A stretch of 64,000 nt of DNA, from the NCBI GenBank assembly GCA_009782555.1, contig WRIV01000012.1, forward strand, positions 1,470 through 65,469, in the 5' to 3' direction. A model generated the notes under the pieces. That model was given only the letters and a program-made list of their open reading frames with translations. It did no database searches and was not told the DNA's origin. This document shows positions 1,730-51,752 of this stretch, piece after piece (the first letter of the stretch is position 1; every line of letters starts with the position of its first letter). Both the position numbers and the translations under genes were made by a program. The DNA comes from Treponema sp. (GTDB lineage Bacteria > Spirochaetota > Spirochaetia > Treponematales > Breznakiellaceae).

Positions 1730-2098
1730 TCATGCAAACGCTTTTTCGATAGTTGCAATCAAATGTTTCGCATCTACCGGTTTGGTTAGAACATCGAAGG
1801 CGCTTGAATTTTTGGCCTGCTTTAAGAAATCTTCTCCGGTCTTGCCGCTGACGATAATAATAGGCACTTCCATGTAGCTGGGGATTTTTCGTATATCTTC
1901 AAGAAATTCAAACCCGGAGATATTTGGCATTTCGATGTCCAGAAGAATAAGGTCCACCTTGTTTTTGTTTAGAAAGCTTAAAGCTTCCGATGTGGATTTT
2001 GCGGCCCGAAGAATGTATTGTGGGGACAACATTCCCTGAAACAGTACATGTTGTGACATATTGTCATCAATCGCAAGGATAAGTTTTTTATTTTCCAT
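1730..2098 (-). CDS. Single-domain CheY-like response regulator
   Basis: 122 aa. Receiver signatures: ILAIDDN, LILLDIEMPNISGFEF, IIIVSG, LTKPV. No output domain. Paralog of the ORF at 25440-25841. Confidence 0.9.
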   Translation of the reverse strand: MENKKLILAIDDNMSQHVLFQGMLSPQYILRAAKSTSEALSFLNKNKVDLILLDIEMPNISGFEFLEDIRKIPSYMEVPIIIVSGKTGEDFLKQAKNSSAFDVLTKPVDAKHLIATIEKAFA

Positions 2099-2259: not shown

Positions 2260-3309
2260 ATGGAAAATAATAATGCAAAAACAATATATGCGCCGGATGC
2301 AAAAATATTGATTGTGGATGACATAGAATCGAATTTATATGTTGTCAAAAAACTTCTGATGCCTTATGGATCAACGATTGACACCGTTACGAGCGGTGCT
2401 GGGGCAATTGAAAAAATTAAGGGCGGTGCCATATATGACATAATATTTATGGATCACATGATGCCCGAAATGGACGGAATAGAGACCGTCAAAATCATCC
2501 GGGAGATGGGCATAACCATGCCGGTTATTGCCCTTACTGCCAGTAATTCCGGAGATTCCAAGGAAATGTTCCTGGCTGCCGGCATGAACGATTTGCTGAC
2601 AAAGCCTATTGACAAGGCATTGCTGGAAAAACAACTGGTGGAATGGATTCCCTCCGGAAAGTTTACCGGTCCGCCGCCGAAACCGGCTGCCGCAAATGCT
2701 GCCGAAGTTAACATGGGTCTAAGAAAAAGTCTTGAGCAAATTAAGGAGATTTCCATACAAACAGGCCTGGACAGGGTTACCGGTCAATGGGACATTTACG
2801 AAAAGCTGCTGAAGCTGACAGTAAAAGAATTTGAAAAGCGCAACAAAAACCTGAATGAATTTTTGGCAGCCGGCGATATGCACAATTTTTGCGTAGAGAT
2901 ACATGGCCTTAAAAGCGCTCTGGCCAACATAGGCGCCTCAGAACTTTCCGACCAGGCGCGGGATATGGAAGACGCATCCGGCAGGGAAGACGCCGTTTTT
3001 TGCTCCTCAAATTTACCGCGTTTTTTAGAAGGCCTTGCCGGCTTGAATTCAAAGCTTATGGAAGCCTTTTCAAAAGAGAGCCAAAATCTCGGTCCAATAA
3101 CAATACCGGCGGAATTACCGTCAGTTTTTGAAAAACTGAAAACCGCTTTTGAAAAAAACGATTTTGAGGCCATGGATGAAGGAATGCAAAGCCTGAACGC
3201 GTTAATGGCAGACGGAGCGCTAAAAGAAGAAATAGACAAAATCAATGAAGCCGTACTAATGATAGACTACAAGGGCGCTATGAAAGTGATGGATAAACTT
3301 CTGGGTTAA
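2260..3309 (+). CDS. Receiver (REC) plus HPt phosphotransfer protein
   Basis: 349 aa. N-terminal REC (ILIVDDIESNLYV, IIFMDHMMPEMDG, ALTA, LTKPID) closely resembles the kinase receivers in this locus. C-terminal HPt motif: FCVEIHGLKSALANIGA. GGGGAG RBS. Confidence 0.9.
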   Translation: MENNNAKTIYAPDAKILIVDDIESNLYVVKKLLMPYGSTIDTVTSGAGAIEKIKGGAIYDIIFMDHMMPEMDGIETVKIIREMGITMPVIALTASNSGDSKEMFLAAGMNDLLTKPIDKALLEKQLVEWIPSGKFTGPPPKPAAANAAEVNMGLRKSLEQIKEISIQTGLDRVTGQWDIYEKLLKLTVKEFEKRNKNLNEFLAAGDMHNFCVEIHGLKSALANIGASELSDQARDMEDASGREDAVFCSSNLPRFLEGLAGLNSKLMEAFSKESQNLGPITIPAELPSVFEKLKTAFEKNDFEAMDEGMQSLNALMADGALKEEIDKINEAVLMIDYKGAMKVMDKLLG

Positions 3310-5714
3310 GCTTCCGGCTGATGCCTATCACGGATAAATTTCTTCAGAACGGCATTCAACTGGCGTACATCAATCGGCTTGGAAATGAAGCCGTCGAAGC
3401 CGTTTTCCAGGAATACTTCGGACTGTCCAACTACGGCATTCGCCGTTAATGCGACGACAGGCTGTGTGTACCCCAGTTCGCGTATTTTTTTTACTGCTTC
3501 TATGCCGTCCATTTCGGGCATCATGTGATCCATGAACACAATGTCATATACACCGCCGTCCCTGATTTTATCAATCGCCTCGAAGCCGTTCGAGGCAGTT
3601 TCAATCGACAGCCCGTAAGGCGACATAAGCCCTCTGGCGACATAGAGATTTGATTCTACGTCGTCTACTACCAAAACCTTGCCGTAGGACATCGGCTCAA
3701 ATATCATCTGCGCACCTTTCATCTGCTTTGTTTTGCTTATTTGGTGCTTTTCAAGGCTTTGCGCAAGTTCTCTGCCCAATACACTGGATCCAACGGCCAC
3801 CTGAGGCAGACGTATGGTGAACGCCGATCCCCAGTTTACCTCGCTTTTGACGGAAATCTCTCCGTTCATCATGCGTATCAGATTCTTTGTAATGCTCATA
3901 CCCAGTCCTGTTCCCTCGGTGGTGCGGTTTGCCTTCATGTTAAAGCGGGAGTATTCGTCGAATAGTTTGCCGATCTGTTCCTCAGTCATGCCCAGCCCTG
4001 TGTCGCTTACGGTAAACACAAGCGTTATACTGTCCTTGGAATCGATTTCCTTTTTGACAAAAACGGACAGCTTGACCAGGCCTTTTTTCGTGTATTTAAA
4101 AGAGTTGCTCAATAAATTGTTCAATATCTGCTTGATGCGCAGCTCGTCTCCAAAAAGGGTTGACGGTATGTTTGGATCCACTGATAGTTCAAAGGTAATA
4201 GGCTTGCTGCCAATCCGCATCATGTTAAGGGTAACGGTATCGTTGATCATGCTCGCCACCTGATATTCGGCAGGAACAAGTTCCAGTTTGCCGGCTTCGA
4301 TTTTGGACAGATCGAGTATGTCATTGATGATGTTAAGCAGCAGGTCACCCGAATTGTAAATTTTTCCCAGCGCTTCCCTTGTGTCCGGCACGAGTGCTTC
4401 ATTCTGCAGCTGAATTTCAGCAATGCCCAAAATCGCGTTCATCGGCGTGCGAATCTCGTGGCTCATGGTGGCAAGGAAAGAAGACTTCGCAACCGAAGCC
4501 ATTTCCGCCGTTTCAAGGGCTTCTTTAAGCAGTTCTTCCTGCTGTTTTTTCTGCGACACATCCTTTGAAGCCTGAAAAAGGACCATGGAACCGTCCACCC
4601 AGCGGATAATCGAAGCGGTTCCGCCGAGCCATACGTTCAAAATATCGTCCCACACATATTCAAAGTCTTTGTTCGGTAACTCGTCTTTTTGGGGCAGAAG
4701 ATCCATCAGTTGGCAGAAGGCGCATGGCGCATCTTTGCCCCTTGTAACATTGTAACATTTTTTGTTTACATAATCATTGTCCATATCGAATCTGCTCGTC
4801 AGTCGTTTGTTTGCGTACAGCAGGTTATAGTCAAGGTCACAGACGCATATCATGGCATCCAGGTTGTCCATAATGGTCATTGTTTTGGTATGCTCGGAAA
4901 TCTTGTCTACCATATCGCCTATGCTGTTTGAAAGTACCCCCAGCTCATCCTTGCGATCATTTCGGATGGGGTATGCAAGATTTCCATTGGCTATTTCGAC
5001 CGCTGCCTTTTCCAGCGCCGAAATTGGCTGATTAATACTGTCGGTAGTGAGCAATAACGCAATAGTCAGCATACAAACAAGGACAACGGCTATGATGTAG
5101 ATCACACGCAGTACACCGGCCGTATGTTCCGTTGCCTCCAGGGCTTTTTCCTTTGTTGTAGAAAAAACCTGATCCCGTATCGCCTGCAATTTAAGACTGA
5201 GTGTGGTACCCATGGGAATGACTTCGGCGTAAATCTGAATCAATTCCTGTACGTCAGCATTCTCCACGGCGGTGTCAATTCTTCCGGTGGCTTTCATGTA
5301 TTCAATGAATAAATCTATAATTTCTTTTACGGCATCCGCGCGCATCTGTTTTTCCGATTCGCTGAGTCTTTTGTCTGATTGCGTTATATGCTGGTAATTC
5401 ATCAGATTATCGGTGAATAATTCGACGGTTTCCCTGTAATTCTCCTGATACTCTGAAATTATGCCCTTAAAGGCATCTCCGTTCACCAGATACCCTTTGG
5501 CAAGATTTGCTACTCGTAGACTGTAAGACTCTACAATTGCTTCCGCTATGTAGATCTGCCGTACCTGGTAGGTATTTATCAGTTCGTTAAGATCGCCTCC
5601 TATGCCGGTTATTTGCATAACGGAAAATGCAACAAAGGAAATTATTGCAAACAAAATTACTGCAAATACAAAAAAATGCTTGCTTCGTATTTTTATGTCG
5701 TTGAACCATTTCAT
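3306..5714 (-). CDS. Hybrid sensor histidine kinase (4HB sensor-HAMP-Cys PAS-HisKA-HATPase-REC, no HPt)
   Basis: 802 aa. MCP-like N-terminus MKWFNDIKI, with two TM segments flanking a helical periplasmic region. HAMP (ELGVLSNSIGDMVDKI), H-box SHEIRTPMNAILG, G-boxes DTGLGM and GTGLGMSI, and a C-terminal receiver (VVDDVESNLYV, FMDHMMPEMDG, ISKPID). Confidence 0.92.
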   Translation of the reverse strand: MKWFNDIKIRSKHFFVFAVILFAIISFVAFSVMQITGIGGDLNELINTYQVRQIYIAEAIVESYSLRVANLAKGYLVNGDAFKGIISEYQENYRETVELFTDNLMNYQHITQSDKRLSESEKQMRADAVKEIIDLFIEYMKATGRIDTAVENADVQELIQIYAEVIPMGTTLSLKLQAIRDQVFSTTKEKALEATEHTAGVLRVIYIIAVVLVCMLTIALLLTTDSINQPISALEKAAVEIANGNLAYPIRNDRKDELGVLSNSIGDMVDKISEHTKTMTIMDNLDAMICVCDLDYNLLYANKRLTSRFDMDNDYVNKKCYNVTRGKDAPCAFCQLMDLLPQKDELPNKDFEYVWDDILNVWLGGTASIIRWVDGSMVLFQASKDVSQKKQQEELLKEALETAEMASVAKSSFLATMSHEIRTPMNAILGIAEIQLQNEALVPDTREALGKIYNSGDLLLNIINDILDLSKIEAGKLELVPAEYQVASMINDTVTLNMMRIGSKPITFELSVDPNIPSTLFGDELRIKQILNNLLSNSFKYTKKGLVKLSVFVKKEIDSKDSITLVFTVSDTGLGMTEEQIGKLFDEYSRFNMKANRTTEGTGLGMSITKNLIRMMNGEISVKSEVNWGSAFTIRLPQVAVGSSVLGRELAQSLEKHQISKTKQMKGAQMIFEPMSYGKVLVVDDVESNLYVARGLMSPYGLSIETASNGFEAIDKIRDGGVYDIVFMDHMMPEMDGIEAVKKIRELGYTQPVVALTANAVVGQSEVFLENGFDGFISKPIDVRQLNAVLKKFIRDRHQPEA

Positions 5715-5749
5715 GTCAAGCTCCTTTTTGGTCTGTTACGCCGCGAGCC

Positions 5750-6787
5750 TCATTGCAGAACGCCGGCTTCCCTGTAGTATCTGGCCGCGCCCCGGTGCAG
5801 GGGCACCTGAACCGATGAAGCAGCTGCGCCTTTGGGATCGAAGGCATTGTAATTTGCCCCGATTTGAACCAGGAAATCCTTGTTTTCGTTCAGCACCTTG
5901 GTAAATGTATACGCAACAGCTTCAGGCAGTCTCGGGCTGACAATAATTTCCGTTGAATGACATACTGCCGGTACATCGTTATCAATACCCGGATAGGTTC
6001 CGCCGGGTATCCGGGAGAGGCCGCTTGAGCGGGCAACGGTTCCCCATGTATAATGGCAATAATCAATTAACTCATTACTTGCGGCAAGAATAACAGAAGA
6101 CCTTCCCTCGATCATTTCCGTTACAACGGCCGCCGGCATTCCAAAGTTTACAATAGCGTAATCGACACGGCTGTCCATGAACATTTTGATCATGTCGCCG
6201 TAGACTGTCTGGTTGACGCTGCCGCCGTTCTGTTCGATCATGTCAAAAGATACGCTATAGTAATCCAGAATTATCGAAGCCATTACATAATCGGTTGTTC
6301 CGGATGCGGCAGCCGCAAGGTTAATTTTTTCGCCGCCCTTGATTTTCTGCGCCAGCTGTTCAATCGTTGTTATCCCCATTTCCTTGCCGGCAAGGAAATG
6401 GTAGTAATCCACCGAGAGCGTTCCCGCTATTGACGCTATATTTGTATATTTTTTCTGGAAAAGCGGTGCTACGCCGTTATAGGCTGCCCTATTAACGTAT
6501 CCCACCCCCCAGGCAATTTCACCCTCGCCCTGATCCAGCGAAACGGGATTTCCGATACCTCCGCCCGGTACTACATGTATGGTAATGCCAGGTTCTTTCT
6601 CGCTGAGAAACCTGGCAAATTCGCCGGCAACCGTGTACCAGCCGCCGCCTTCTCCTCCTGCCAGCCATGTATAGGTACCGGCAGGCAGTTTGCCCGAGCC
6701 GGAAGTTTTTTTTTCGCATCCTATCATGACAATTGCACCGGCGATAATCAAAAAACAAAATGCCAGGATATACCGTAACTTTTTCAT
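5750..6787 (-). CDS. TAXI-family (TRAP-type) periplasmic solute-binding lipoprotein, with no transporter partner nearby
   Basis: 345 aa. Signal peptide with a lipobox-like MIGC. TAXI-like core: GGEGGGWYTVAGEFARFL...VVPGGGIGNPVSL..GEGEIAW. No DctQ/DctM-like membrane ORF is present in the window. Confidence 0.8.
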   Translation of the reverse strand: MKKLRYILAFCFLIIAGAIVMIGCEKKTSGSGKLPAGTYTWLAGGEGGGWYTVAGEFARFLSEKEPGITIHVVPGGGIGNPVSLDQGEGEIAWGVGYVNRAAYNGVAPLFQKKYTNIASIAGTLSVDYYHFLAGKEMGITTIEQLAQKIKGGEKINLAAAASGTTDYVMASIILDYYSVSFDMIEQNGGSVNQTVYGDMIKMFMDSRVDYAIVNFGMPAAVVTEMIEGRSSVILAASNELIDYCHYTWGTVARSSGLSRIPGGTYPGIDNDVPAVCHSTEIIVSPRLPEAVAYTFTKVLNENKDFLVQIGANYNAFDPKGAAASSVQVPLHRGAARYYREAGVLQ

Positions 6788-6802
6788 GCTATTCCTCCAA
6801 TT

Positions 6803-9800
6803 CTATATCGTTTCAATCATCTTCGCTGCGGAGCGTAAAGCTTCTTCAAAATCGCCGTTTAACAGGTGTTCAGACATTGTCTCCAGCATCTTTTTGGTTG
6901 CCTTGGGCCATGACTTTTCCCTTAGATCGCCTATCGCGGCTTTCGCTGCTTTTTTGTTGTATACTTCGCACGCTTCTTTAATCACAGCCATTTTTTCGCG
7001 CAGATAAGCTCTATCTTCTTCCGTATCCGCTGCTGCTTTGCCGTCTCCGTCCTCTTCTGGCGGGGCAAGCTTTTCAATTAACGCATTCAGCCTGCCAAGG
7101 AATGCAGGGGTTTGTGCCGCCATGACGGCGGTGTCCTTTGCCCGTCCGGCCTGTTCCAGTTTGAGCGCGGCGGCGGAAAGCTCCGTTTCATCAATGTTTG
7201 ACAGCGCGCTTTTTATTCCATGGGTGTTGATGGTATACAGCCGTATGTCTTCATCGTCCCAGGTGCCGCGTTTCGCACATAATGTTTCCAGTGCAGCGAG
7301 GGTTTTTTTCGCATCCCGTACAAATATCTCTGCCAGTTCCGGGTCGATCAATGACTGCGCCGCAGTTCCCGTTGTTTCGCCTGCAGCCTGTGATGTCTGA
7401 TAGCCGCCGGCAGCATCTGAAGGATGTCTATCTCGCACAAATTTTTTTAGAATGGCGTTTAACTGGCGTATGTCAATCGGCTTGGAAATAAATCCGTCAA
7501 AGCCATTCGCCATGAATACATCGGACTGTCCCACCACGGCATTTGCCGTTAAAGCAACGACGGGCTGTGCGTATCCGAGTTCGCGTATTTTCAATGTTGT
7601 CTGAATGCCGTCCATTTTCGGCATCATGTGATCCATAAATAATATGTCATAGGTGCCGCCGTCCTTAATTTTGGCAATAGCGTCAAAACCGCTTGTAACG
7701 GTCTCTATTGTCAGTCCGTAAGGCAGCAGAAGCCCTCTGGCGACATAGAGATTCGATTCCACATCGTCCACCACCAAAATTTTGCCGTAGGGCATCTGCT
7801 CGAATACAACCTGCGCCCTTTTTAACTGCTTCTCTCCGTTTATCTGGAACTTCTCCAGGCTTTTCGCCAGTTCCCTGCCCAGAACTTCAGTGCCGGCAGC
7901 CCCCTGCGGTAAACGTATAATAAACGTTGATCCTTTGTCCAGTTCACTTTCGACATTGATCTCTCCATCCATCATGCGTATCAGGTTCTTCGTGATACTC
8001 ATGCCAAGCCCGGTTCCCTCTGTAGTACGATTGGTTTCCGTGTTAAAGCGGGAATACTCGTCGAACAATTCGGTGATCTGTTCTTCAGTCATGCCCTGTC
8101 CGGTATCATTTACGATAAAAACAATTGCTACGTTGTCTTTTGTTTTTTCGGAAGAAACGGACAATTTAACCGATCCCTCCTTTGTGTACTTGATGGCGTT
8201 AGAGAGTACATTGTTCAAAATTTGCTTGATGCGAAGTTCGTCTCCAGATAGGACAGAGGGAATATTTTCATCCACAGAGAGAGTAAAATCAATAGGTTTG
8301 CTGCCAATCCTCATCACATTTAGTGTCACGGTATCGTTGATAAGGCTTGCGGTTTTGTATTCGGCGGAGATCAGCTCCAGCTTACCGGCCTCTATTTTGG
8401 ACAAGTCGAGTATGTCGTTGATAATATTGAGCAGAAGATCACCTGAATTATAAATTTTTTCCAGGGCTTCCCTTGTTTTTAAAGCGAGCGCACCGTCCTG
8501 AAGCTGGATTTCGGCAATGCCCAAAATCGCGTTCATTGGCGTGCGCATTTCATGACTCATGGTGGCCAGGAAGTCGCTCTTTGCCTTGGAAGCGGATAGG
8601 GCTATGGCCTCCATCTCTTTTATTTTTGTTATGTCCTGCACAACTTCGATAAACCCTGCGGCCTCACCTTCCAGGTTTTTTAGTACCTCAGTATCCACCT
8701 GGTAAGCAGCTCCGTCGTGCGTAAAATATGTGCGCTTCAGGCCGCGTTTCGCGCAGGAGATACCGCAGTCGGGAGTATTGCAGATATTTACGTTCCAGTT
8801 ACTGCAAGGGTTACCCAGCATATCTTCAAGTTTTGTATTCAGAAAATCTTCTGCAGTTTTATTGACAAATGTCCAGCACATATTCATGTCTGTTACTGAA
8901 ATGGGAAGCGGCGTTGCATCAAGAATGGATTTATACCAATGTGATTGCAGAGCTGAGCGCTCGTGCGCCTCGCTAAGCTGATCCGACTGCAGGTTAAGGC
9001 GTACCCACATGTCCCATATCGTCCGCGCCAGTCCTCCAATTTCATCATCGCGGTCTCTGCCGAAGATATCGACCGCATCAGAATCGGCCTGTGATACGCT
9101 TTGTGTCAGACGGTTCAAGGGCGTATAAATATGCCGCCGCATCAGAATGTCCATGATCACTACATAAAGAAGCAGCGCTGACAGCAAGACGATCAAGAGC
9201 GGGAGAAAGTCCGCTATACCGGACAAGGAGCTGTGTTTGTAAAAGACGACAACCGACCAGTTCGTATCGGCGATCGGCTTAATAGCCGCATATCCAAAGG
9301 CTCCTCCTTTGGCCAGTTTGATTACTTCGGACTGCGAATGAGAATCAAAGAAACCGCTAATCCGGTTCTCATACGATGCAAGGGCCGCTGTAAAAGCAGG
9401 ATCGTTATTTTCATCGCTGATATGTCCGGGGGTTTCTTCCTGATCAATATCAAAAGAGGTGCTGGCCATCTGGATTATGCCATTCTTGTTGACAACATAT
9501 CCCTGAAGAGCGGCATCGCCGAATTCTTCAAATATTCCCCGAAACATATCGGAAATTTCCAGTCCGGAGGCAAACGCTCCTTCAGTTTTTCCGTTCGATA
9601 TTACTTTGTGATTGATCCATAAGTACCAAATGCCTGTTCTTTTTTCCGGGTCAATATTTAAGGTGTAGTCATTTTCGGAATTGATACATTCAAAATACCA
9701 CCGGTCGTCAGGACTTGCCGGGGTGAGTTTGTCAAAAGGAACAAATTCATCCAATGTTGCCTTGTTGTTGATTGAATACTCATTTAATGTTTCATGGATC

Positions 9801-10153
9801 CCAAAATACAGTTGGGCACCCTGAAAAAGGCTGGCATAATCCAATAACTCATCAAAGGCAGCGGCTTTTTTTAATGCATTTCCTTCTTCGGCAAACCAGC
9901 TTGTCATCGCCCTTGAAATGGCCGTCTTTTGTGTCAGAGCAAGATCCCTGTTGATATAATACGAAAATTTATCCGCCGCATCTATAGAAAAGGAACGGAC
10001 GATATTCATGGCGGCATTGTCATTAATACCGCTGACCAGCGTTAATATTATCGTTGTTATCATGGCAAGGATCAAGACAAGAAGGAGCATACTGATATTT
10101 CTGGCGCGTGCTTCAATTTTGCTTTTATGTTTCTTCAGGATGGCATGATTCAT
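6803..10153 (-). CDS. Hybrid sensor histidine kinase (Cache-like sensor-HAMP-4-Cys PAS-HisKA-HATPase-REC-HPt)
   Basis: 1116 aa. TM, then a roughly 270-aa extracytoplasmic Cache-like region, then a second TM. HAMP (DEIGGLARTIWDM), H-box SHEMRTPMNAILG, G-boxes DTGQGM and GTGLGMSI, receiver (VVDDVESNLYV, FMDHMMPKMDG, ISKPID). C-terminal HPt: INTHGIKSALSNI. Confidence 0.92.
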   Translation of the reverse strand: MNHAILKKHKSKIEARARNISMLLLVLILAMITTIILTLVSGINDNAAMNIVRSFSIDAADKFSYYINRDLALTQKTAISRAMTSWFAEEGNALKKAAAFDELLDYASLFQGAQLYFGIHETLNEYSINNKATLDEFVPFDKLTPASPDDRWYFECINSENDYTLNIDPEKRTGIWYLWINHKVISNGKTEGAFASGLEISDMFRGIFEEFGDAALQGYVVNKNGIIQMASTSFDIDQEETPGHISDENNDPAFTAALASYENRISGFFDSHSQSEVIKLAKGGAFGYAAIKPIADTNWSVVVFYKHSSLSGIADFLPLLIVLLSALLLYVVIMDILMRRHIYTPLNRLTQSVSQADSDAVDIFGRDRDDEIGGLARTIWDMWVRLNLQSDQLSEAHERSALQSHWYKSILDATPLPISVTDMNMCWTFVNKTAEDFLNTKLEDMLGNPCSNWNVNICNTPDCGISCAKRGLKRTYFTHDGAAYQVDTEVLKNLEGEAAGFIEVVQDITKIKEMEAIALSASKAKSDFLATMSHEMRTPMNAILGIAEIQLQDGALALKTREALEKIYNSGDLLLNIINDILDLSKIEAGKLELISAEYKTASLINDTVTLNVMRIGSKPIDFTLSVDENIPSVLSGDELRIKQILNNVLSNAIKYTKEGSVKLSVSSEKTKDNVAIVFIVNDTGQGMTEEQITELFDEYSRFNTETNRTTEGTGLGMSITKNLIRMMDGEINVESELDKGSTFIIRLPQGAAGTEVLGRELAKSLEKFQINGEKQLKRAQVVFEQMPYGKILVVDDVESNLYVARGLLLPYGLTIETVTSGFDAIAKIKDGGTYDILFMDHMMPKMDGIQTTLKIRELGYAQPVVALTANAVVGQSDVFMANGFDGFISKPIDIRQLNAILKKFVRDRHPSDAAGGYQTSQAAGETTGTAAQSLIDPELAEIFVRDAKKTLAALETLCAKRGTWDDEDIRLYTINTHGIKSALSNIDETELSAAALKLEQAGRAKDTAVMAAQTPAFLGRLNALIEKLAPPEEDGDGKAAADTEEDRAYLREKMAVIKEACEVYNKKAAKAAIGDLREKSWPKATKKMLETMSEHLLNGDFEEALRSAAKMIETI

Positions 10154-10197
10154 CCCCCTGTCTCCTTTTTATTTCGGCGAATTGTGCAAAAGTTTTT

Positions 10198-13224
<3,027 letters not shown>

Positions 13225-13228
13225 CTCT

Positions 13229-14308
13229 TTATTTTACATGACTGCTTTGCCGTGAAAGTTTAACCCTTGCCACTTCAAACTGGTTTTTTATTTCAAAAAA
13301 AACTTCCGTTATCCTGGGGTCAAAATGTTTACCCGATCCGTCCATGATTATGCTGACCGCTTCATCATTTGAGAAAGCTTTCTTGTAGGGGCGGTCGGAA
13401 GTAAGTGCGTCGTACACATCAACAATCGCCATGATGCGTCCGTGAAGCGGAATATCCGTTTCCTTCACTCCGTAAGGATAACCCTTGCCGTCCCATCGCT
13501 CATGGTGATACGCCGCCGACAGTTTGGCGCTGCTTAAAAAATCCACTTCGCCGGTCCGGCTGACCATTTGGTCGATTATCTGCTCGCCCAGTGCGGAATG
13601 ACTTTTCATCGTCTGAAATTCCTCGTTGGTCAGTTTATCCGGCTTGTTCAAAATAGCATCGGGAATTGAGATTTTTCCAATATCATGCAGGCGAGCCGAT
13701 GAAATCACCGATTCCAGATCCCAGCCTTCCATCTCGTCTCTGTATATGCCGCAGGCATTCATGGCGTCAATAAGCAGTTTCATAAATACCGTTGTCCTAT
13801 CGATGTGCCCCCCGGTATTTGTGTCGCGGTTTTCAACAAGATCCGCCATAGTGCACACAATGCCGTTCTGTAAACGTTCAAGCCGTTCCGTCCGTTCGCG
13901 GAGTTGTTCCGTCCGTTCACGGATTAACTCGTCGATGTCCAGGTGATTCTTGATACGATTCAGCAGAACCGGCACGGAAAAGGGCTTGGTGATAAAATCG
14001 ACAGCTCCCAGCTCTATCCCGTAAGCCTCGTTAACGGAGTCGCTCAGGCTGGTAAGAAATATGACCGGTATTTCAGAGTGGGAAGAACTGGCTTTCAGCT
14101 GTTTCATCGCCTGGAATCCGGTCATTTCCGGCATTTCAATGTCCAGCAAAATCAGGTTGGGCGTGATTTTTTCCATTATTGCGAACATTTTGGACGCAGA
14201 TGACAACGTTATCACCTGGTATAGATTTTCCAGCGCTTCTTCCGCTACTGAGAGGTTTGTGGAGTTATCATCGACCACAAAGATGGTTTTTTGCATATCT
14301 CCACCCAA
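13229..14308 (-). CDS. Response regulator with HD-GYP output (predicted c-di-GMP phosphodiesterase)
   Basis: 359 aa. REC (IFVVDDNSTNL, LILLDIEMPEMTGF, ITKPF), then HD-GYP signatures LHDIGKISIP, HHERWDGKGYPYG and DVYDALTSDRPYK. Its stop lies 4 nt from the next kinase's start. Confidence 0.9.
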   Translation of the reverse strand: MGGDMQKTIFVVDDNSTNLSVAEEALENLYQVITLSSASKMFAIMEKITPNLILLDIEMPEMTGFQAMKQLKASSSHSEIPVIFLTSLSDSVNEAYGIELGAVDFITKPFSVPVLLNRIKNHLDIDELIRERTEQLRERTERLERLQNGIVCTMADLVENRDTNTGGHIDRTTVFMKLLIDAMNACGIYRDEMEGWDLESVISSARLHDIGKISIPDAILNKPDKLTNEEFQTMKSHSALGEQIIDQMVSRTGEVDFLSSAKLSAAYHHERWDGKGYPYGVKETDIPLHGRIMAIVDVYDALTSDRPYKKAFSNDEAVSIIMDGSGKHFDPRITEVFFEIKNQFEVARVKLSRQSSHVK

Positions 14309-14449
14309 TAATTAGCTGATTTATTTACCAAACAAACGATACCGAACGGTAGTGGAATTAGCCGCAATAAGTATAGCAGAGACAGCTAAAATGTCAACCT
14401 TTTGAGGGTGCAGAGAAATCGCTTTTGGTATTGAATTTTCTGCCTTTTC

Positions 14450-15726: not shown

Positions 15727-16587
15727 TTACTGCAGAAGCTGGAGTACCGTTTGTGCCTTCTGATTGGCCTGAGCAAGCATCGCGGTACCGGCCTGATTGA
15801 GGATCTGGTGCGTAGTATACGACACAGTCTCATTGGCCATGTTGGTATCACGGATGCGGGATTCCGAAGCCTGCATATTTTCAGCTCCGATATCAAGGCC
15901 GCGCACAGCGTGTTCCAGGCGGTTCTGGTAGGCGCCAAGATCTGCTCTTTGCTTGTTGATCTTCTTAAGCGCTTCGTCGATGGTTCCAATGGCACGGTTG
16001 GCACTGTCCGGACTGGACATTGATAGTTTTGATTCATCACCAATATTCCTGACCCCGAGGGCCTTGGCAGTCATGGTGTTGATAAAGACCTGCATCCGCT
16101 GATCCATGTTTGCACCGATATGGAGCCACATAGAGGCGGTGACCACATTTTCGCCGATAAGCCGGCCAAATCGTCCGGTAAGCAGATTCATACCGTTGAA
16201 CTGAGCGTGAGATGCAACCCGGTCTACTTCGTCCACGAGCTGGGAAATTTCCACCTGGATGTACATCCGGTCTTCCGCAGTATAGATACCGTTAGAAGAC
16301 TGTACCGCAAGTTCACGCATGCGCTGCATAATATCCTGGGATTCCTGAAGGTAACCTTCCGTAACCTGAATGAACGAAATACCGTTCTGGGCGTTGGTAG
16401 ACGCCTGATTCAAGCCGCGGATTTGGCTTCTTAACTTCTCGGAAACAGCGAGTCCAGAAGCATCATCACCGGCGCGGTTGATTCGCATGCCGCTTGACAG
16501 TTTCTCCATGTTCTTGTCCAGAGATACCTGGGTGACCTTGAGGGACCTGTCGGCAAACATTGCACTGAGGTTGTGGTTAATTATCAT
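15727..16587 (-). CDS. flaB: Flagellar filament core flagellin FlaB
   Basis: I trimmed the ORF-track start to the Met at 16587 ([16 protein letters not shown]...), which has an AAGGAG RBS 8 nt upstream. 286 aa. Conserved flagellin N- and C-termini ([21 protein letters not shown] ... [17 protein letters not shown]). Confidence 0.93.
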
Positions 16588-16895
16588 ATTGAACACTCCT
16601 TTGGCAGTTTCCGGCGGTATTCTGTCCCTGTGACAGAACACCGCCGCGGCCTCCATGCCGTTTGTTTTTTAGTTCTTTAGCCATAAAGAACCGTGCCTTA
16701 ATTTTCCTTTCGGAAACTTGGAACCCTCGACCCACCCGTCCCCGGAAGGGTGAGGATATCCCGAACAATACAACCGCGGCGGCCCGACGGGCGCGCTGTT
16801 ATTTGTCCAGTTCATTTTTAGTGTCGGTTTAAAAAAAAAATGCTTTAGCGATTTTGAAGACTTAAAAACAAAACCCAAACCTGCCACAATGGGGC

Positions 16896-27164: not shown

Positions 27165-28346
27165 GTGGATATGATTCAGGTTTTTTCCGCCCATACCAGT
27201 GAAATTGATGATGTGGAAGCGGCGGTATCCGAAATTCTGGAACAGCTGAATATAAACCGCCGGTTAAAATATTCGGCGGGGATCATGTATTACTATGGCG
27301 ATTTTGCCCATACCGGAGTGGTACAGCAAATCAGTAAAAACCTGCCCTTTCCCATTGTTGGAGGAACCACCTCAAATTCAGCCATTCGGGGATCAAAAGA
27401 AGATATAACCCTTACCATTACCGTTTTTACCAGCGATGATGTAGCTTTTTCCGCCGGGATAAGTGAATCTCTCCATAACCAGCCCTTTATGCCCCTGGAA
27501 AAACTCTATAAACAAATGCTGGAAGAAAAACCTCATGGTGCGGGAAAAAAACCGGCGATGTTTTATATCGTGGTTCCGCATTTTTACGAAATTACCGGGG
27601 ACGATTATCTGGCAGCCCTTGACGGCCTGAGTGGAGGCGTTCCGGTCTTCGGTTCCGTAGCCTTTACCCATACGGTAGATTTTAAAGACATCAAGACCTT
27701 TTATAACGGCGTTGAATATGACAACGCCATGGCGGTACTCGCCTTTTGGGGGGACTTGGAGCCGCAGTTTTTTGTTTCTAATATTCCAGAAGAGCAAATT
27801 ATTAATAAACAGGCAGTTATTACCGATTCCTACCGGAACAGAGTCAAGCGGGTTAATGGCATTCCTGTCCTGGAATACCTGGAATCCATAGGCCTTGCCA
27901 AGGACGGACAACTGAAAGGGATTGGCTCCTTTCCCCTGGTTTTACATCTGCCCGATGGATCCCGTCTGGTTCGTACTATTTACGGCGCCGAAGACGGGGA
28001 ACTCTTATGCAGCGGAGCAGTGCCTTCCGGTTATCCCATGGGAATTTCTTTTTGCGACAGGGACTTTGTTATGGAATCGGCCCGGAAAACCGCAGAAAAA
28101 TGCAAAAAATGGCTGGAATCCCGGAATTTTTCTGAACCCCGATCGGCCCTGGTTATTTCCTGCGCCGCCCGGAGGTGGACCCTGGGCTCCGATGTCTATG
28201 CGGAGGTTCGGGAAATCGATACAGGACTGAAAGATCTGCCCTACCACTTTATCTATACCCGGGGTGAGTTCTGTCCTGTTCATATCCAGGAAAATAGAAC
28301 GACCAATTATTTTTTTAATTTTACTCTGGGTATTTGCGTTTTGTAG
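27165..28346 (+). CDS. FIST (FIST_N plus FIST_C) sensory-domain protein
   Basis: 393 aa, no TM segment. Layout and motifs typical of FIST proteins (…VGGTTSNSAI…, C-terminal …YTRGEFCPV). It starts 4 nt after the glycosyltransferase stop and ends 7 nt before the kinase. Confidence 0.7.
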   Translation: MDMIQVFSAHTSEIDDVEAAVSEILEQLNINRRLKYSAGIMYYYGDFAHTGVVQQISKNLPFPIVGGTTSNSAIRGSKEDITLTITVFTSDDVAFSAGISESLHNQPFMPLEKLYKQMLEEKPHGAGKKPAMFYIVVPHFYEITGDDYLAALDGLSGGVPVFGSVAFTHTVDFKDIKTFYNGVEYDNAMAVLAFWGDLEPQFFVSNIPEEQIINKQAVITDSYRNRVKRVNGIPVLEYLESIGLAKDGQLKGIGSFPLVLHLPDGSRLVRTIYGAEDGELLCSGAVPSGYPMGISFCDRDFVMESARKTAEKCKKWLESRNFSEPRSALVISCAARRWTLGSDVYAEVREIDTGLKDLPYHFIYTRGEFCPVHIQENRTTNYFFNFTLGICVL

Positions 28347-28353
28347 GTAAAGC

Positions 28354-30777
28354 ATGGCTAAGGGTGAAAAAACCACTCCGGCAGGAGTGGAAGGAAAAAT
28401 AAAAAAACTGGAACGGGAACTCCAAAGCCTTTCCGAAACAATGAAACTTTCGGAACAGGCCCTGGAAGCCAAGATCCGCTTTATGTCCGTCTTACAGGAA
28501 GAAAAAACCCGGCAGGAATGGTTTCTTAATATGCTGCTGGAAAACAGCATTGATATTATATTTCTGTTGGACAAAGACCTTAGTATTGCCTATTGTACCA
28601 AGGCTTTTCTTGACATCTACCATGTTCCCCATTTTGACATGATCCGGGGGAGGAATTTTGTTGATATAATAAACCAATATATCAACAAAGACAATGCCAA
28701 AAGACTAACTTCTTTTTTGATAGAGCACCGGCAGATGCAGGAACCTGGGCAGTTTGAATTTGCCCACAGGTATCCCGGAGAAGACCAAAACAGGGTACAT
28801 CATGTTCACTTGACTCCCATGATTAAGGACGGAGAAATTGCCGGTTATATGATCCTGGGCCACGATATCACAGATATAGTCCAGGCCAGAGAAGAGGCGG
28901 AAAAAGCTAACGATACCAAAAGCATTTTTCTGGCCGCCATGAGCCATGAAATCCGTACCCCCATGAATGCCGTTATCGGAATGAGCGAACTGGCCATGCG
29001 TGATGTAAAAAACCCGGTGGTAGCTGAATACCTTTTGGACATCAAGCAGGCGGGAAATAACCTTTTGGCGATCATCAATGATATTCTTGATTTTTCCAAA
29101 ATAGAATCCAGCAGCCTTCAGATAACAGAAATGCCCTATGAATTCAGCTCTCTAATCAATGATGTACTAAACGTAATGAGGATTCATCTGAAGGATAAGC
29201 CCATACAGTTCCTGGCAGAAATTGATTCCCATATTCCCCGGCTGCTCTTGGGAGACGCAGGCAGGGTACGGCAGATTCTGTTTAACCTTTTGAGCAATGC
29301 CCTCAAGTATACCCGGCAGGGTTTTGTAAAGATCAGTATTGGCTGCAGTCCGGTGCCTTTGGAGGATGTAAAACCAAAGAGACTGCGCCTTTATTTCAAG
29401 ATCAGTGACAGCGGCATAGGGATAAAAAAAGAAGATATGGGCAAACTTTTTAAAAACTTTGTCCGCCTGGATACGGTGCGGAATGCGGGGATTGAAGGTA
29501 CCGGCCTTGGGCTTTCCATAACCCGCAGCCTCTGCAAAGCCATGGGGGGAGATATTACGATTGAAAGCGAATATCAGAAGGGTTCGATTTTTATGGCAGA
29601 GGTGCTCCAAGAGGCTGTTGATTCCCGGCCCATGGCGGAGGTGGAAGAGCCGGAACTAAAAAAGACCCTCTTTTACTGCGATAATTCCCTGCTTTCTTCC
29701 TCCTTGGGCTGGACCCTGGAAAACTTGGGCCTTCCCGCAGCACCGGCGGTAAATCAGGAAGAACTGCTGGAAAAACTCGGTACCGGCCTTTGGGATTATG
29801 TCTTTTTTCCCATTGACTGCGCCGAACCAGTAAAGAACTGCATTGATCAAAAAAAACTCAAAACAATTCCTGTACTGTTGGGAAATTTTTCGCCGGGGAA
29901 AAATAGTTTCTGGGACGGTCTGACTGCTGCTTTTCCCTACTATGCTGTTTCGGTGGTTAACGCTTTTCTGGGAAACAAAGGTATTTACCAGCGGGGTGAC
30001 AAATCGTCCTTTACCTGTCCTGATTTTAAGGCACTTATCGTGGATGATCTGGATATTAACCTGAAAATCGCCCAGGGCCTGCTTGCCCCCTACCAAATGC
30101 AGCTTACGCTTTGTAAAAGCGCTTTTCGGGCGATCGAACTGGTTCAGAAAAACGATTTTGATCTTGTCCTGCTGGATCAAATGATGCCGGACATGGATGG
30201 CATGGAGGCAGTCAAGTCTATCCGATCTCTCCAGGGGCAAAAATATAAGGATATTCCCATAGCTGCCATGACCGCAAATACCACGGCAGGCATACGGGAA
30301 GCCTTTCTAAAAAAGGGGTTTAACGATTATCTTTCCAAGCCAATAGAGAGTTTCCGCCTTAATGAATTCCTGGAACGCTGGGTCAGCGAAGACCGGCGCC
30401 GGCCTGCAGAACTGACGGACTATACCTCCCTGGGCGTCAAGGGGTTAGACGAAAGCAGGGGAATGGCGGGATGCTTTCATTCACAGAAAACATACCGGGA
30501 ACTGCTTCGGCTGTTTTGCGAAGATGTCGATTACCGGCTTACCTTTCTGCAAAAAACGGCGGCTGATAATGAACTTGCAAAAGGAAAAGGATCCCGCCTT
30601 TTATCCAGTCTGCATATTCTTAAAAGCGCCTGCGAAACTGTTGGGGCCCTGTCCCTGGCCAAAACTGCGGCGGAACTAAAAAATAATGCGGGAGGAGATG
30701 CGGCGCAGCTTTCCCGTTATGTGAAAGAACTGGGAGCATTCAGGAAAACCATCCTCCAGGCGCTGGAGTCTGCTTAA
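28354..30777 (+). CDS. Cytoplasmic hybrid histidine kinase (coiled coil-PAS-HisKA-HATPase-degenerate REC-REC-HPt)
   Basis: 807 aa, no TM segment. H-box SHEIRTPMNAVIG; G-boxes DSGIGI and GTGLGLSI; receiver (LIVDDLDINL, LLDQMMPDMDG, LSKPIE); HPt (LHILKSACETVGA). Confidence 0.9.
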   Translation: MAKGEKTTPAGVEGKIKKLERELQSLSETMKLSEQALEAKIRFMSVLQEEKTRQEWFLNMLLENSIDIIFLLDKDLSIAYCTKAFLDIYHVPHFDMIRGRNFVDIINQYINKDNAKRLTSFLIEHRQMQEPGQFEFAHRYPGEDQNRVHHVHLTPMIKDGEIAGYMILGHDITDIVQAREEAEKANDTKSIFLAAMSHEIRTPMNAVIGMSELAMRDVKNPVVAEYLLDIKQAGNNLLAIINDILDFSKIESSSLQITEMPYEFSSLINDVLNVMRIHLKDKPIQFLAEIDSHIPRLLLGDAGRVRQILFNLLSNALKYTRQGFVKISIGCSPVPLEDVKPKRLRLYFKISDSGIGIKKEDMGKLFKNFVRLDTVRNAGIEGTGLGLSITRSLCKAMGGDITIESEYQKGSIFMAEVLQEAVDSRPMAEVEEPELKKTLFYCDNSLLSSSLGWTLENLGLPAAPAVNQEELLEKLGTGLWDYVFFPIDCAEPVKNCIDQKKLKTIPVLLGNFSPGKNSFWDGLTAAFPYYAVSVVNAFLGNKGIYQRGDKSSFTCPDFKALIVDDLDINLKIAQGLLAPYQMQLTLCKSAFRAIELVQKNDFDLVLLDQMMPDMDGMEAVKSIRSLQGQKYKDIPIAAMTANTTAGIREAFLKKGFNDYLSKPIESFRLNEFLERWVSEDRRRPAELTDYTSLGVKGLDESRGMAGCFHSQKTYRELLRLFCEDVDYRLTFLQKTAADNELAKGKGSRLLSSLHILKSACETVGALSLAKTAAELKNNAGGDAAQLSRYVKELGAFRKTILQALESA

Positions 30778-43124: not shown

Positions 43125-43607
43125 ATGGCAAGCGATGAAATTGTTACCTGGCATAGATCCTATTCGGTTAGCATTCCTCTGATCGATTCCCAGCATATGG
43201 AGTTGATTAACTTGACCAACAAACTGTACCGGAGCTGCCTGAGAGGCAGAGACAGCTCCTTGGAAGTTTTTATGGTGGTACTCCGGGGGGCGGTGGACTA
43301 TGTAGGATACCATTTTTCCACTGAGGAAAAAATTATGGAACGGGTGGAGTATCCTAATTTTGGAGCCCACAAAAGGGAGCATAACGATTTTGTCCGAGAG
43401 GTGCTTAAATCGGTAGACGATCTTTCCAAGGGGGGTACCGTAAATCCCCTGGGGTTTGTTAAATACCTAAAAGACTGGGTGTTGACCCATATTGCTGTTA
43501 CTGACTCCGCTCTGGGACACCATCTGGTAGCCTTAAAACAAAAGGGTGTTCTGCAAAATATTACCCTTAAGGTAAAACAGGTTTCGAATCGTTATGTGTT
43601 TGATTGA
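43125..43607 (+). CDS. Hemerythrin-like (bacteriohemerythrin) metal-binding protein
   Basis: 160 aa. Motifs: W...YSVSIPLIDSQHMELI, HFSTEEKIME, AHKREHNDF, THIAVTDS. These supply the His/Glu/Asp ligands of the di-iron site. Confidence 0.88.
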   Translation: MASDEIVTWHRSYSVSIPLIDSQHMELINLTNKLYRSCLRGRDSSLEVFMVVLRGAVDYVGYHFSTEEKIMERVEYPNFGAHKREHNDFVREVLKSVDDLSKGGTVNPLGFVKYLKDWVLTHIAVTDSALGHHLVALKQKGVLQNITLKVKQVSNRYVFD

Positions 43608-43613
43608 GGCGGC

Positions 43614-44705
43614 ATGGGAGAGGAACAAGTACCGGGGTTTTTTAAGACCGCCCCGGAACCAGCTCGTTCAATAGCAGAAGAAAAAGAATCAAAATTCCGC
43701 AGAGTTGCCAAATTTCTCGTCCTTATTGGAAGCAGCCGGGGATCGGAAATCCTTTCCAGGCTTCCTCAGGATCAGGTGGAAGCAATTTCCAGAGAAATCG
43801 CTTCCGTCGAAACAATAGGGCCGGAGGAAAGACAGGAAATTCTGGAGGAATTCAGTTCCCTGCTGACTTCTCCCTATCAGGTCCTGGGGCCTTCCTCCGG
43901 CGGCATCGAAGCGGCCCGGCGGGCGCTGTATGCCGCTTTTGGCCCGGAAAAGGGGGAGCGGCTCCTTCTTAAAGCGGTGCCTACAGCAAAACCCAATCCC
44001 TTTGATTTTCTGGAAGACTTTTCCGGCGATCAGCTGGCCCTCCTTTTTAGGGAAGAATCTCCATTGGCGGCGGCCCTGGTTTTTTCCCGGCTGCCGCCCA
44101 AACTTTCCGCCGCAGCCCTTTCCCGCTTCCCGGGCGAAAAAAAACTAGAAATCCTAAAACGCATAGCCAAACAGGCGGCGGTTGCTCCGGAAGTGCTGGA
44201 ACAGGCCGCCGGAGCCCTTAGGGAAAAAGCCAAACGGATCAGCGCTCAGGCCGGTAATTCCGGCGATATAAATTTTAGCGGCATGGATGCCCTGGCGGCG
44301 ATCCTAAAATCCTCCGATATGGGTTTTGGTGATGAAATTCTGGGCCAACTGGAACAGGAGGACCCCGAACTGAGCAGAGCCCTAAAGGAAAAAATCTACA
44401 CCATGGAGGATATCTTAAACGCCGCCGACCTTCCCATCCAGAAAAAACTCGCTTCCATGGACGACCGGAATGTCGTACTCCTCCTTAAGGCCCGGACAGG
44501 AAACGAGGATACCGCCCTCTTCCGGGAAAAAATACTCCGTAACCTTTCCCAGGGAAGGCGGGAGGTAATTCTGGAAGAAGAGAACATTACCGGCGCCGTT
44601 CTCCGCCGTGATGTGGACGAGGCTGCGGCGGCTTTTCTTGCCTGGTTCAGGCAGGAAAGGGAAGAGGGCGGTATAATACTTCTGGATGATGATCTGGTAA
44701 TCTAA
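43614..44705 (+). CDS. fliG: Divergent FliG paralog (flagellar motor switch protein family)
   Basis: 363 aa. Collinear with FliG: VAKFLVLIGSSRGSEILSRLPQDQVEAISREIA; FDFLEDFSGDQLALLF; ILKRIA; IYTMEDIL; LSQGRREVILEEE. The EHPQ motif reads ESPL here. Confidence 0.8.
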   Translation: MGEEQVPGFFKTAPEPARSIAEEKESKFRRVAKFLVLIGSSRGSEILSRLPQDQVEAISREIASVETIGPEERQEILEEFSSLLTSPYQVLGPSSGGIEAARRALYAAFGPEKGERLLLKAVPTAKPNPFDFLEDFSGDQLALLFREESPLAAALVFSRLPPKLSAAALSRFPGEKKLEILKRIAKQAAVAPEVLEQAAGALREKAKRISAQAGNSGDINFSGMDALAAILKSSDMGFGDEILGQLEQEDPELSRALKEKIYTMEDILNAADLPIQKKLASMDDRNVVLLLKARTGNEDTALFREKILRNLSQGRREVILEEENITGAVLRRDVDEAAAAFLAWFRQEREEGGIILLDDDLVI

Positions 44706-51058: not shown

Positions 51059-51080
51059 ACCGGCCTGTGCAGTGCGTTTT

Positions 51081-51752
51081 CTAATTAAAATTCAGCGTAA
51101 AGGCAAATTCAACCTTGGGAATCAGCATATCATCGTGGTGCTTGCCGGAATCGGTTCCCGCGGGCGGTACCGGCATCAGCGCCGCGGCGCTGGTTACTAT
51201 CGGGTCCGCGGCATTATCGTTTTTCCTGACCTGGCTTGTGGATCCGGAACTGACCAGCATGGGCCTGCCTTTTTTGCCCTGAAAGACAACGATGCCCTTC
51301 TGCACCGCCAGGCGGCGGGTATCAAAGTCAAAACCGGTTCCCCGAACCGAGGCGGTGGCGCTGGGACTCCGGACGGTCATATTGGTCCTGGTTCCCGCCG
51401 GGGGGGTTACATCCACCCGGACCCTTCCTGCCTGTAAATTCAGGTTGATTGTTTCCGTCCCCGCAGAGGAACTGAGTTCCGCCAGAGACAGGCGGGTCAG
51501 GGGCCGGACGGTAATAACCGAACTTCCTATGGCAATAAGGGCGGTACTCTTAAATCCCGTGGATACAATGGTATCCCGGGCCACCGTGTCCCCGGCCCTG
51601 GCGGGAACAAAGGCCGCCTGGCCGGCCCGCTTAAGTTCCACCGTGCCGGAAAGTTCCTTGATCACCCCGGTTTGGGCAAAGGCCTGTCCCGCAGCAAAAA
51701 AACACAAAAGGCCCGCTAGGATCAATGCCTTATGTTTTTGTCCCTGTTTCAT
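51081..51752 (-). CDS. Secreted FecR-domain protein
   Basis: 223 aa with a signal peptide. FecR-like beta-sandwich motif: GTVELKRAGQAAFVPARAGDTVARDTIVSTGFKSTALIAIG. Confidence 0.75.
   Translation of the reverse strand: MKQGQKHKALILAGLLCFFAAGQAFAQTGVIKELSGTVELKRAGQAAFVPARAGDTVARDTIVSTGFKSTALIAIGSSVITVRPLTRLSLAELSSSAGTETINLNLQAGRVRVDVTPPAGTRTNMTVRSPSATASVRGTGFDFDTRRLAVQKGIVVFQGKKGRPMLVSSGSTSQVRKNDNAADPIVTSAAALMPVPPAGTDSGKHHDDMLIPKVEFAFTLNFN

Follow-up and report, generated by a model that had tools for sequence, protein, structure and literature searches.

A TAXI-family solute-binding protein encoded among hybrid histidine kinases in Treponema as a candidate signaling co-receptor

According to a review of signaling by solute-binding proteins (SBPs), the genes for SBPs that stimulate kinases are characteristically located with signaling genes, and transporter-less SBPs encoded with kinases are known from TorT/TorS, LuxP/LuxQ, HptA/HptS, and XylFII/LytS. 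Most SBP genes of the TRAP family are operonic with the genes for their membrane components, with only a few “orphans” acknowledged in the literature, and the TAXI proteins are the less-studied half of this family, with few ligands known. In the literature consulted on TAXI proteins and SBP signaling, we found no report tying a TAXI-family protein to kinases or signaling. Here we describe a seven-gene signaling cluster from an uncultured Treponema sp. (assembly GCA_009782555.1) in which a TAXI gene lies between genes for hybrid histidine kinases and shares their strand with a gene for an RpfG-type response regulator. The cluster lies in a stretch of 64,000 nucleotides, referred to throughout as the window (contig WRIV01000012.1, positions 1,470 to 65,469 of the forward strand). 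The SBP gene in the window is encoded with kinases and not with a transporter, which is the criterion by which SBP-dependent kinases are recognized. We propose, with a probability of roughly 0.55, that the TAXI-derived protein is a lipid-anchored co-receptor that acts on one or more of the neighboring kinases and feeds an RpfG-type phosphorelay.

An initial annotation of this region had listed five co-directional genes, and their domains and coordinates were confirmed by open reading frames (ORFs) and by Pfam and NCBIfam. In order on the minus strand, these encode a response regulator with REC and HD-GYP domains (REC-HD-GYP; 13229-14308, REC at residues 9-120 and HD-GYP at residues 154-333), the hybrid kinases HK_A (10198-13224) and HK_B (6803-10153), the TAXI-fold periplasmic binding protein (5750-6787), and a third hybrid kinase, HK_C (3306-5714). 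The TAXI protein has a signal peptide with the lipobox VMIGC (Cys24), and its gene lies 35 nt 5′ of HK_C. The intergenic gaps of 4, 44, 15, and 35 nt given in that annotation are correct for these ORFs, with the exception that independent gene calls place the start of the REC-HD-GYP protein at ATG 14296 and that of HK_A at ATG 13218, so that the first gap becomes 10 nt. A purine-rich stretch resembling a ribosome-binding site is present in each of the four gaps, and a consensus scan found no terminator-like site inside any of them. Two further genes bring the cluster to seven and had been overlooked when the locus was described as a five-gene unit with HD-GYP as its sole enzymatic output. One, convergent with HK_C and sharing 4 nt with the HK_C stop, encodes a REC-Hpt protein (2260-3309, plus strand; Hpt His215), and the other a stand-alone CheY-like REC protein (1730-2098, minus strand) that may serve as a second endpoint or as a phosphate sink. 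As had been stated for the locus, no DNA-binding domain was found by Pfam or NCBIfam, here in any of the seven proteins, so the cluster would have no direct transcriptional output.

Several described systems share parts of this layout. In TorT/TorS of Escherichia coli and Vibrio parahaemolyticus, a transporter-less SBP gene likewise lies beside that of a hybrid kinase, TorT is the ligand-binding co-receptor of TorS, and TorS resembles HK_A in having a helical-bundle periplasmic sensor, HAMP, HisKA, HATPase, REC, and Hpt. However, TorT is a Peripla_BP_1 protein and not a TAXI protein, TorS is a single kinase whereas the window has three, and its output is the DNA-binding TorR whereas the predicted output of the cluster is HD-GYP. 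The TMAO_torS model was the top NCBIfam match for HK_C and the second for HK_A and HK_B, with the matches confined to the kinase core; at 308-317 bits against a TIGR02956 cutoff of 676.5, the window kinases are not TorS orthologues. In RpfC/RpfG of Xanthomonas campestris, as in the window, the regulator gene comes first and the hybrid kinase has REC and Hpt domains. RpfC phosphorylates the REC-HD-GYP protein RpfG, and phosphorylation switches on its cyclic di-GMP (c-di-GMP) phosphodiesterase. Unlike the window, this system has one kinase, and RpfC senses diffusible signal factor through a membrane-embedded input domain with no binding protein. LuxP is a transporter-less binding protein that acts as the co-receptor of one among several paralogous hybrid kinases with different sensors, and the Vibrio kinases LuxQ, LuxN, and CqsS converge on the shared Hpt protein LuxU. 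In contrast to the window, LuxP is a Peripla_BP_4 protein and the output is the transcription factor LuxO, and the Vibrio kinases have no Hpt of their own whereas two of the three window kinases do.

The remaining analogues combine SBP-type sensing with c-di-GMP, or TRAP-type or treponemal SBPs with kinases. NspS/MbaA of Vibrio cholerae ties SBP-type sensing to c-di-GMP turnover, but NspS is a free SBP outside the TAXI family that acts directly on the GGDEF-EAL protein MbaA with no phosphorelay. Hk1-Rrp1 of Borrelia burgdorferi is a spirochaete hybrid kinase system with SBP-type sensing and a link to c-di-GMP, although its SBP_3-like periplasmic domains are fused to the kinase, which feeds the cyclase Rrp1 (synthesis, not hydrolysis), and no TAXI protein is involved. 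In Bacillus subtilis, the TRAP-type SBP YdbE (DctB) is encoded with a kinase (DctS) and regulator and has been proposed as a co-sensor; DctB is taken to be a DctP-family protein, unrelated in sequence to TAXI. Within the same genus as the window, lsrB lies beside two-component genes in the termite-gut species Treponema primitia and T. azotonutricium, where a role in sensing and not in uptake has been proposed, but LsrB is an ABC-type SBP, and both the DctB and LsrB systems feed DNA-binding regulators. Canonical TAXI-TRAP systems (TtGluBP, VcGluP/VcGluQM) share the fold and family of the window protein (TM-scores of 0.85-0.87), which differs in having no permease gene adjoining its own, and in the BP0403 TAXI-GltS system of Bordetella pertussis, a TAXI protein works without a TRAP permease yet still serves a transporter. 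The initial statement that no characterized system has this architecture therefore stands for the whole but not for its modules, which have analogues in RpfC/RpfG, TorT/TorS, LuxP/LuxQ, NspS/MbaA, GlnH/GlnX, and YdbE(DctB)/YdbFG. Judged by these analogues, the architecture recombines modules that are already known.

TAXI genes normally lie beside a fused DctQM gene, as the initial annotation had held. Reference genomes supplied a background sample of 80 listed TAXI loci, mostly with distant TAXI genes; of these, 76 have a fused DctQM gene within about 2 kb, nearly always directly 3′, and in none do kinases take the place of the permease. The arrangement in the window is therefore not what would be expected by chance. 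The reported lack of a TRAP permease in the window was also upheld, with no Pfam match to DctQ or DctM among its 38 larger ORFs and nothing at E ≤ 10 when a hidden Markov model (HMM) of the fused TAXI-type DctQM was searched against its six-frame translation. The binding protein scores 134.1 bits over its full length against TIGR02122 (cutoff 84.35) and 134.4 bits against PF16868 (cutoff 27). Its relatives form a tight spirochaete clade at 44-89% identity, beyond which identity is at most 33%. Within this clade, relatives P0007 (71%), P0011 (64%), P0025 (56%), and P0074 (48%) are each encoded directly 5′ of a fused permease of ~635 residues that scores 566 bits on TIGR02123. As these relatives at 48-71% identity are transporter subunits, the window TAXI gene descends from a genuine transporter subunit. 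A further relative, P0009 (65% identity), adjoins neither a permease nor kinases; its gene overlaps the end of an FGE-sulfatase-family gene by 8 nt (L003:9103-11047), which suggests another non-transport context.

The pairing of TAXI and kinase is conserved in related loci. Kinase-linked TAXI copies with 69-89% identity to that of the window are present in at least five diverged loci, and in every related locus a hybrid kinase with a four-helix-bundle (4HB) sensor and HAMP lies directly downstream of the TAXI gene, at spacings of −4 to about 38 nt, as its sole universal neighbor. In these loci, too, no DctQM gene adjoins TAXI. One contig, L093, carries all seven genes in the same order as the window, with identities of 86% (REC-HD-GYP), 75% (HK_A), 62% (HK_B), 77% (TAXI), 76% (HK_C), 62% (REC-Hpt), and 77% (REC). 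Another, L094 (TAXI 89% identical), has HK_B (78% over the part present), TAXI, HK_C (91%), the convergent REC-Hpt (66%), and REC (82%). On three short contigs (L090, L091, and L092), the TAXI copies share 77, 72, and 71% identity with the window copy; upstream of each, an HK_B-like kinase is represented by its Hpt tail (57-63% identity), and 13-27 nt downstream an HK_C-like 4HB kinase is represented by its N-terminus (53-70% identity). In L095 (TAXI 69% identical), the upstream gene differs from HK_B, and a 4HB kinase gene overlaps the TAXI stop by 4 nt; the N-terminus of this kinase has 60% identity to that of HK_A. In a neighbor-joining tree, the kinase-linked TAXI copies form one clade, with the orphan P0009 as sister and DctM-linked copies in the next clade out, which fits a single recruitment event. 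The initial annotation had proposed conservation of this adjacency among spirochaetes as a test; it is conserved across at least five diverged loci in one clade, but this clade is narrow, and the relatives at 48-71% identity outside of it are ordinary transporter subunits.

Additional support for recruitment comes from changes that are specific to the kinase-linked clade. A lipobox cysteine is found in all eight kinase-linked sequences, in none of the nine sister-clade sequences, and in 1 of 71 other clade members. This cysteine ends the hydrophobic core of the signal peptide and is followed by charged residues (e.g., VMIGC-EKK), while all nine sister-clade proteins and the orphan P0009 read MAGG at this position. 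Recruitment was thus accompanied by the conversion of a soluble protein into a lipid-anchored one. Residues R206 and H207, which are 99-100% invariant in 77 other relatives (for which linkage to DctM was established in a sample only), are replaced throughout the kinase-linked clade and in P0009. G56E is fixed in the kinase-linked clade, which is discriminated by 14 positions in total. We infer that R206 and H207 are candidate permease-docking residues that have been released from constraint. Identity to the outgroup is 53% for the kinase-linked clade vs 60% for the sister clade and, by this measure, the former is diverging faster. The gain of the lipobox, the loss of R206 and H207, and the faster divergence are changes that would be expected of a protein that has left its transporter.

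These changes have taken place under selective constraint. Values of dN/dS in the kinase-linked TAXI clade are 0.13-0.20 across dS of 0.27-1.3, compared to 0.18 for a transporter-linked pair and 0.077 for the REC-HD-GYP gene. The TAXI gene is therefore maintained by purifying selection, and the idea that it is a decaying remnant was ruled out. It is also unlikely that the gene has no signaling role at all, being either a permease-less remnant that came to lie in a kinase operon and is kept for an unrelated periplasmic function (e.g., ligand buffering or scavenging) or simply a target that the system regulates. The literature does recognize orphan TRAP SBPs, as noted above, and P0009 demonstrates that orphan TAXI genes persist without kinases. 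Against this reading, the position just upstream of a 4HB kinase is retained across dS of up to about 1.3, the gene is under purifying selection, and the clade-specific lipid anchor places its product at the membrane alongside the kinases.

All three kinases have two transmembrane (TM) helices flanking a periplasmic domain, of about 170 residues in HK_A and HK_C and about 275 residues in HK_B. HK_A and HK_C are 66% identical overall and 40% identical in the sensor, and each runs from a first TM helix through a periplasmic 4HB domain (residues ~35-205 in HK_A and ~33-203 in HK_C), a second TM helix, HAMP, and a PAS segment containing cysteines to HisKA, HATPase, and REC. HK_B has a dCache-like periplasmic domain (residues 41-315) followed by PAS, HisKA, HATPase, REC, and Hpt, and from its second TM helix onward it is 55-56% identical to the other two. 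The HisKA-HATPase-REC-Hpt hybrid architecture (BarA/TorS/ArcB type) is complete in HK_A and HK_B, and HK_C is without Hpt. The phospho-acceptor residues are H422 (HisKA), D729 (REC), and H873 (Hpt) in HK_A, H534, D841, and H978 in HK_B, and H419 (HisKA) and D729 (REC) in HK_C. The HisKA and Hpt models matched, the Hpt match in HK_B being weak. Pfam matches to the sensors were below threshold (4HB_MCP_1 in HK_A, dCache_1 in HK_B), and the HK_B periplasmic domain matches the dCache ligand-binding domain (LBD) of McpH with an E-value of 1.4e-6. An AlphaFold2 (AF2) model of HK_C residues 1-230 (pLDDT 78.5, from three sequences) shows the first TM helix, four long helices, and the second TM helix, with its best TM-scores against the chemoreceptor 4HB LBDs of MCP2201 (0.82-0.84) and PcaY (about 0.68) and no significant E-value, and the HK_C sensor sequence searched against the PDB returned nothing meaningful. 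As there are no significant E-values, the 4HB designation is drawn from the helix pattern, the TM-scores, and the sub-threshold Pfam match. Together with the McpH match, these data agree with the sensor types named in the initial annotation, two of four-helix-bundle type and one Cache-like.

The cytoplasmic PAS-like segments of HK_A and HK_C each contain four cysteines (C292, C323, C334, and C337 in HK_A, window 12214-12351, minus strand; C290, C320, C331, and C334 in HK_C, window 4713-4847, minus strand) with the spacing C-x29-30-C-x10-C-x2-C, which is conserved in the L093 and L094 orthologues. These could provide a metal-, Fe-S-, or redox-sensing input besides the periplasmic one. HK_B of the window has another cysteine cluster (C450, C458, C463, and C467) that is absent from its L093 orthologue. 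HK_C (802 residues) ends right after REC, whereas its L093 orthologue (L093:8887-11646) has about 919 residues with an Hpt tail; the Hpt domain of HK_C has therefore apparently been lost in the lineage of the window and L094.

The SBP-signaling review describes SBP docking on sensors of both fold types, namely 4HB, TarH-like, or HBM-like sensors in Tar, LytS, TorS, and GlnX, and dCache-like sensors in LuxQ, VirA, ChiS, and MbaA. The likeliest docking partner of the TAXI protein would be HK_C, the 4HB kinase encoded directly downstream, and perhaps its paralogue HK_A as well. It appears quite unlikely that the TAXI protein docks not on the 4HB kinases but on HK_B, which has a dCache-like domain and whose gene lies 15 nt upstream of the TAXI gene. 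Such docking would have precedent, since most structurally characterized SBP-binding kinase sensors are of this fold, and HK_B or an HK_B-like kinase is found directly upstream of TAXI in the window, in L090-L092, in L093, and in L094. However, the gene upstream of TAXI in L095 is not HK_B, yet a 4HB kinase still follows with a 4-nt overlap, and the HK_B sensor resembles chemoreceptor dCache domains that bind small ligands directly. The TAXI neighbor carries a sensor of the HK_C type in most loci and of the HK_A type in L095. That a single lipid-anchored TAXI co-receptor serves at least two paralogous kinases is a tentative extension that we regard as unlikely. One ligand-binding event would then be read by several kinases with diverged sensors (40% identity) and combined with what the dCache domain of HK_B senses to give a single c-di-GMP output.

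An AF2 model of the TAXI protein (pLDDT 87.8) has the two-lobed TAXI fold. Its top Foldseek matches were 8u79 and 1us4 (TMt 0.87), followed by 8s4j, 9ibo, and 4ddd (TMt 0.85) and 9ibp (0.77-0.79), and the TM-score against the Thermus TAXI protein GluBP was 0.87. The window protein is thus a TAXI-TRAP subunit by descent and fold, though probably not by function. Pocket positions were mapped with VcGluP numbering and profile alignments, giving 13 pocket-homologous positions that include W50, G77, V95, and D127. The kinase-linked clade and the sister clade are identical at 11 of these 13; C214N is fixed in the kinase-linked clade and A213V is found in four of seven sequences, with further pocket-adjacent differences at M46E and S165T. 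The retained pocket is suggestive of small-solute binding in the inter-lobe cleft. Glutamate was rejected as the ligand, as the VcGluP determinants Y45 and Q93 correspond to W50 and V95, both here and throughout the whole spirochaete TAXI clade, which makes glutamate unlikely. Because the pocket is almost unchanged, the transporter-linked sister proteins probably bind this same ligand or a closely similar one. Genes beside the transporter-linked orthologues encode a racemase-like protein, a DAO/ThiO-like flavoenzyme, a 2Fe-2S protein, a DapA-family enzyme, and an FCD regulator, which hints at an amino-acid-, imino-acid-, or opine-like substrate for these orthologues. A specific ligand name taken from these neighbors was rejected, as every specific match was ambiguous or below cutoff.

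Several observations weigh against the proposed co-receptor role. The tree was built without support values, and a few metagenomes account for the related loci, some of which may be paralogues within one genome and not orthologues. A homology search with the HK_C sensor (residues 1-275) was of low sensitivity, missing the query’s own cluster, and returned one match, with 41% identity; this homologue has no TAXI gene nearby, so a TAXI partner is not required by such sensors. As both 4HB and dCache domains often bind ligands directly, the sensor fold cannot decide whether an SBP is involved. The published TAXI-permease docking model gives buried areas with no residue list, so a docking role for R206 and H207 is only presumed. 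The genome is an incomplete metagenome-assembled genome, which leaves room for a DctQM permease encoded elsewhere, and the nearly unchanged pocket is also compatible with continued transport. These last two points also speak for a dual role, in which the TAXI protein still serves such a permease and also, or only, reports its substrate to the kinases. Closely related TAXI-DctQM operons do exist in related metagenome assemblies (ERZ272572xx/ERZ272573xx), and the SBP-signaling review lists BctC, GltB, and CBP as SBPs for both transport and signaling. We nevertheless consider a dual role a minor, though appreciable, possibility: the otherwise invariant R206 and H207 are gone from the kinase-linked clade, its lipobox is clade-specific, it diverges faster than the sister clade, and pairing with a permease in trans would be atypical given the adjoining permease in 76 of the 80 reference loci.

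The probable output of the cluster is the REC-HD-GYP protein. It matches the Pfam models for REC (80.6 bits) and HD_5 (115.5 bits), and the motifs HDIGK and HHERWDGKGYP are visible in its translation. With a REC domain and HD-GYP motifs it falls under the definition of the RpfG family and is a predicted c-di-GMP phosphodiesterase; the family has active as well as inactive members. No other HD-GYP architecture is as common as REC-HD-GYP, and HD-GYP domains abound in spirochaetes. The REC-Hpt protein is a candidate phosphotransfer partner of HK_C, which has no Hpt of its own.

In the co-receptor model that we favor, the TAXI gene would derive from the binding subunit of a TAXI-TRAP transporter, with duplication followed by loss of the permease and conversion of the protein into a lipid-anchored co-receptor in the periplasm. 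The protein would bind a small polar ligand and, in its liganded or free form, dock on the periplasmic domain of a neighboring hybrid kinase, shifting the partner’s balance of kinase and phosphatase activity. The dCache-like domain of HK_B would probably read a second signal directly. Phosphate would pass from histidine to the REC aspartate and on to the kinase’s own Hpt in HK_A and HK_B, and by way of the separate REC-Hpt protein in the case of HK_C, to reach the REC-HD-GYP regulator, and possibly the single REC protein also, with altered c-di-GMP hydrolysis as the outcome. Ligand binding, docking, the partner kinase, the phosphotransfer route, and the sign of the response are inferred by analogy with the systems described above. 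The suggestion in the initial annotation that the TAXI protein was recruited as a co-sensor is thus partly supported: conserved adjacency and clade-specific changes give good circumstantial support from comparative genomics for recruitment into signaling, and this support does not carry over to the mechanism.

If correct, this would be the first candidate signaling co-receptor of the TAXI family and would add a new SBP family to those that take part in SBP-dependent sensing. The locus would also be a clear case of a transporter subunit turned receptor, with transporter-linked sister genes available for comparison. The candidate changes for this conversion (lipobox gain, R206/H207 loss, G56E, and C214N) could help to define the surface on which TAXI proteins dock on their permease. 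Sensing of a nutrient or metabolite would be linked to c-di-GMP, and so probably to motility, in an uncultured Treponema, and if the TAXI protein were shared by several kinases, the cluster would be an array of sensors with a common co-receptor that once belonged to a transporter. Should the TAXI protein have no co-receptor role, the cluster is an ordinary multi-kinase RpfG-type phosphorelay that encloses an orphan binding-protein gene.

The best sigma-70-like promoter match in the region (14370-14397, minus strand; TTGACA-16-TATACT with a TG extension, 11/12) lies about 60-75 nt 5′ of the REC-HD-GYP start; it is a consensus match only, and the number of sigma-70-like sites across the region is no higher than in shuffles. 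At the other end of the cluster, a near-perfect palindromic hairpin with an 18-bp stem (ACGTTTCTATATAAAGAAACGTTTCTTTATATAGAAACGT, 1525-1565) lies just 3′ of the REC gene, between it and a gene for a pyridoxal phosphate (PLP) enzyme, and forms a terminator-like cluster boundary, with a stem that exceeds that of a typical intrinsic terminator. On L094, the cluster is followed on the other strand (L094:6796-12672) by a second REC-HD-GYP gene, whose product is 47% identical to that of the window, and by two more hybrid kinase genes. It appears that RpfG-type modules exist as several paralogues in these treponemes.

Finally, other signaling and motility genes are found in the window. A FlaB-type flagellin gene (15727-16656, minus strand) lies about 1.4 kb past the start of the signaling operon, and at 43125-44705 (plus strand) a gene for a hemerythrin-domain protein lies directly 5′ of a FliG-family gene. 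The proximity of motility genes to c-di-GMP modules may be a clue to what the system targets. A stand-alone EAL-domain protein (182 bits; ORF 56636-57475, plus strand) represents a second type of c-di-GMP phosphodiesterase in the window and is followed by Rce1-like, PAP2, and acyltransferase genes. G+C content falls to 35% at window 56001-58000 vs about 50% elsewhere, which suggests a foreign origin of this stretch. At 27165-30777 (plus strand), a gene for a FIST_N/FIST_C sensor protein is followed 7 nt on by that of a PAS hybrid kinase with REC and Hpt, forming a further pair of accessory sensor and hybrid kinase. At 48311-51752 (minus strand), a CHASE2-domain adenylate/guanylate cyclase of 915 residues is encoded directly downstream of a co-directional FecR-domain gene, with an OmpA-family gene near, and this region looks like a separate cyclic-nucleotide signaling module.

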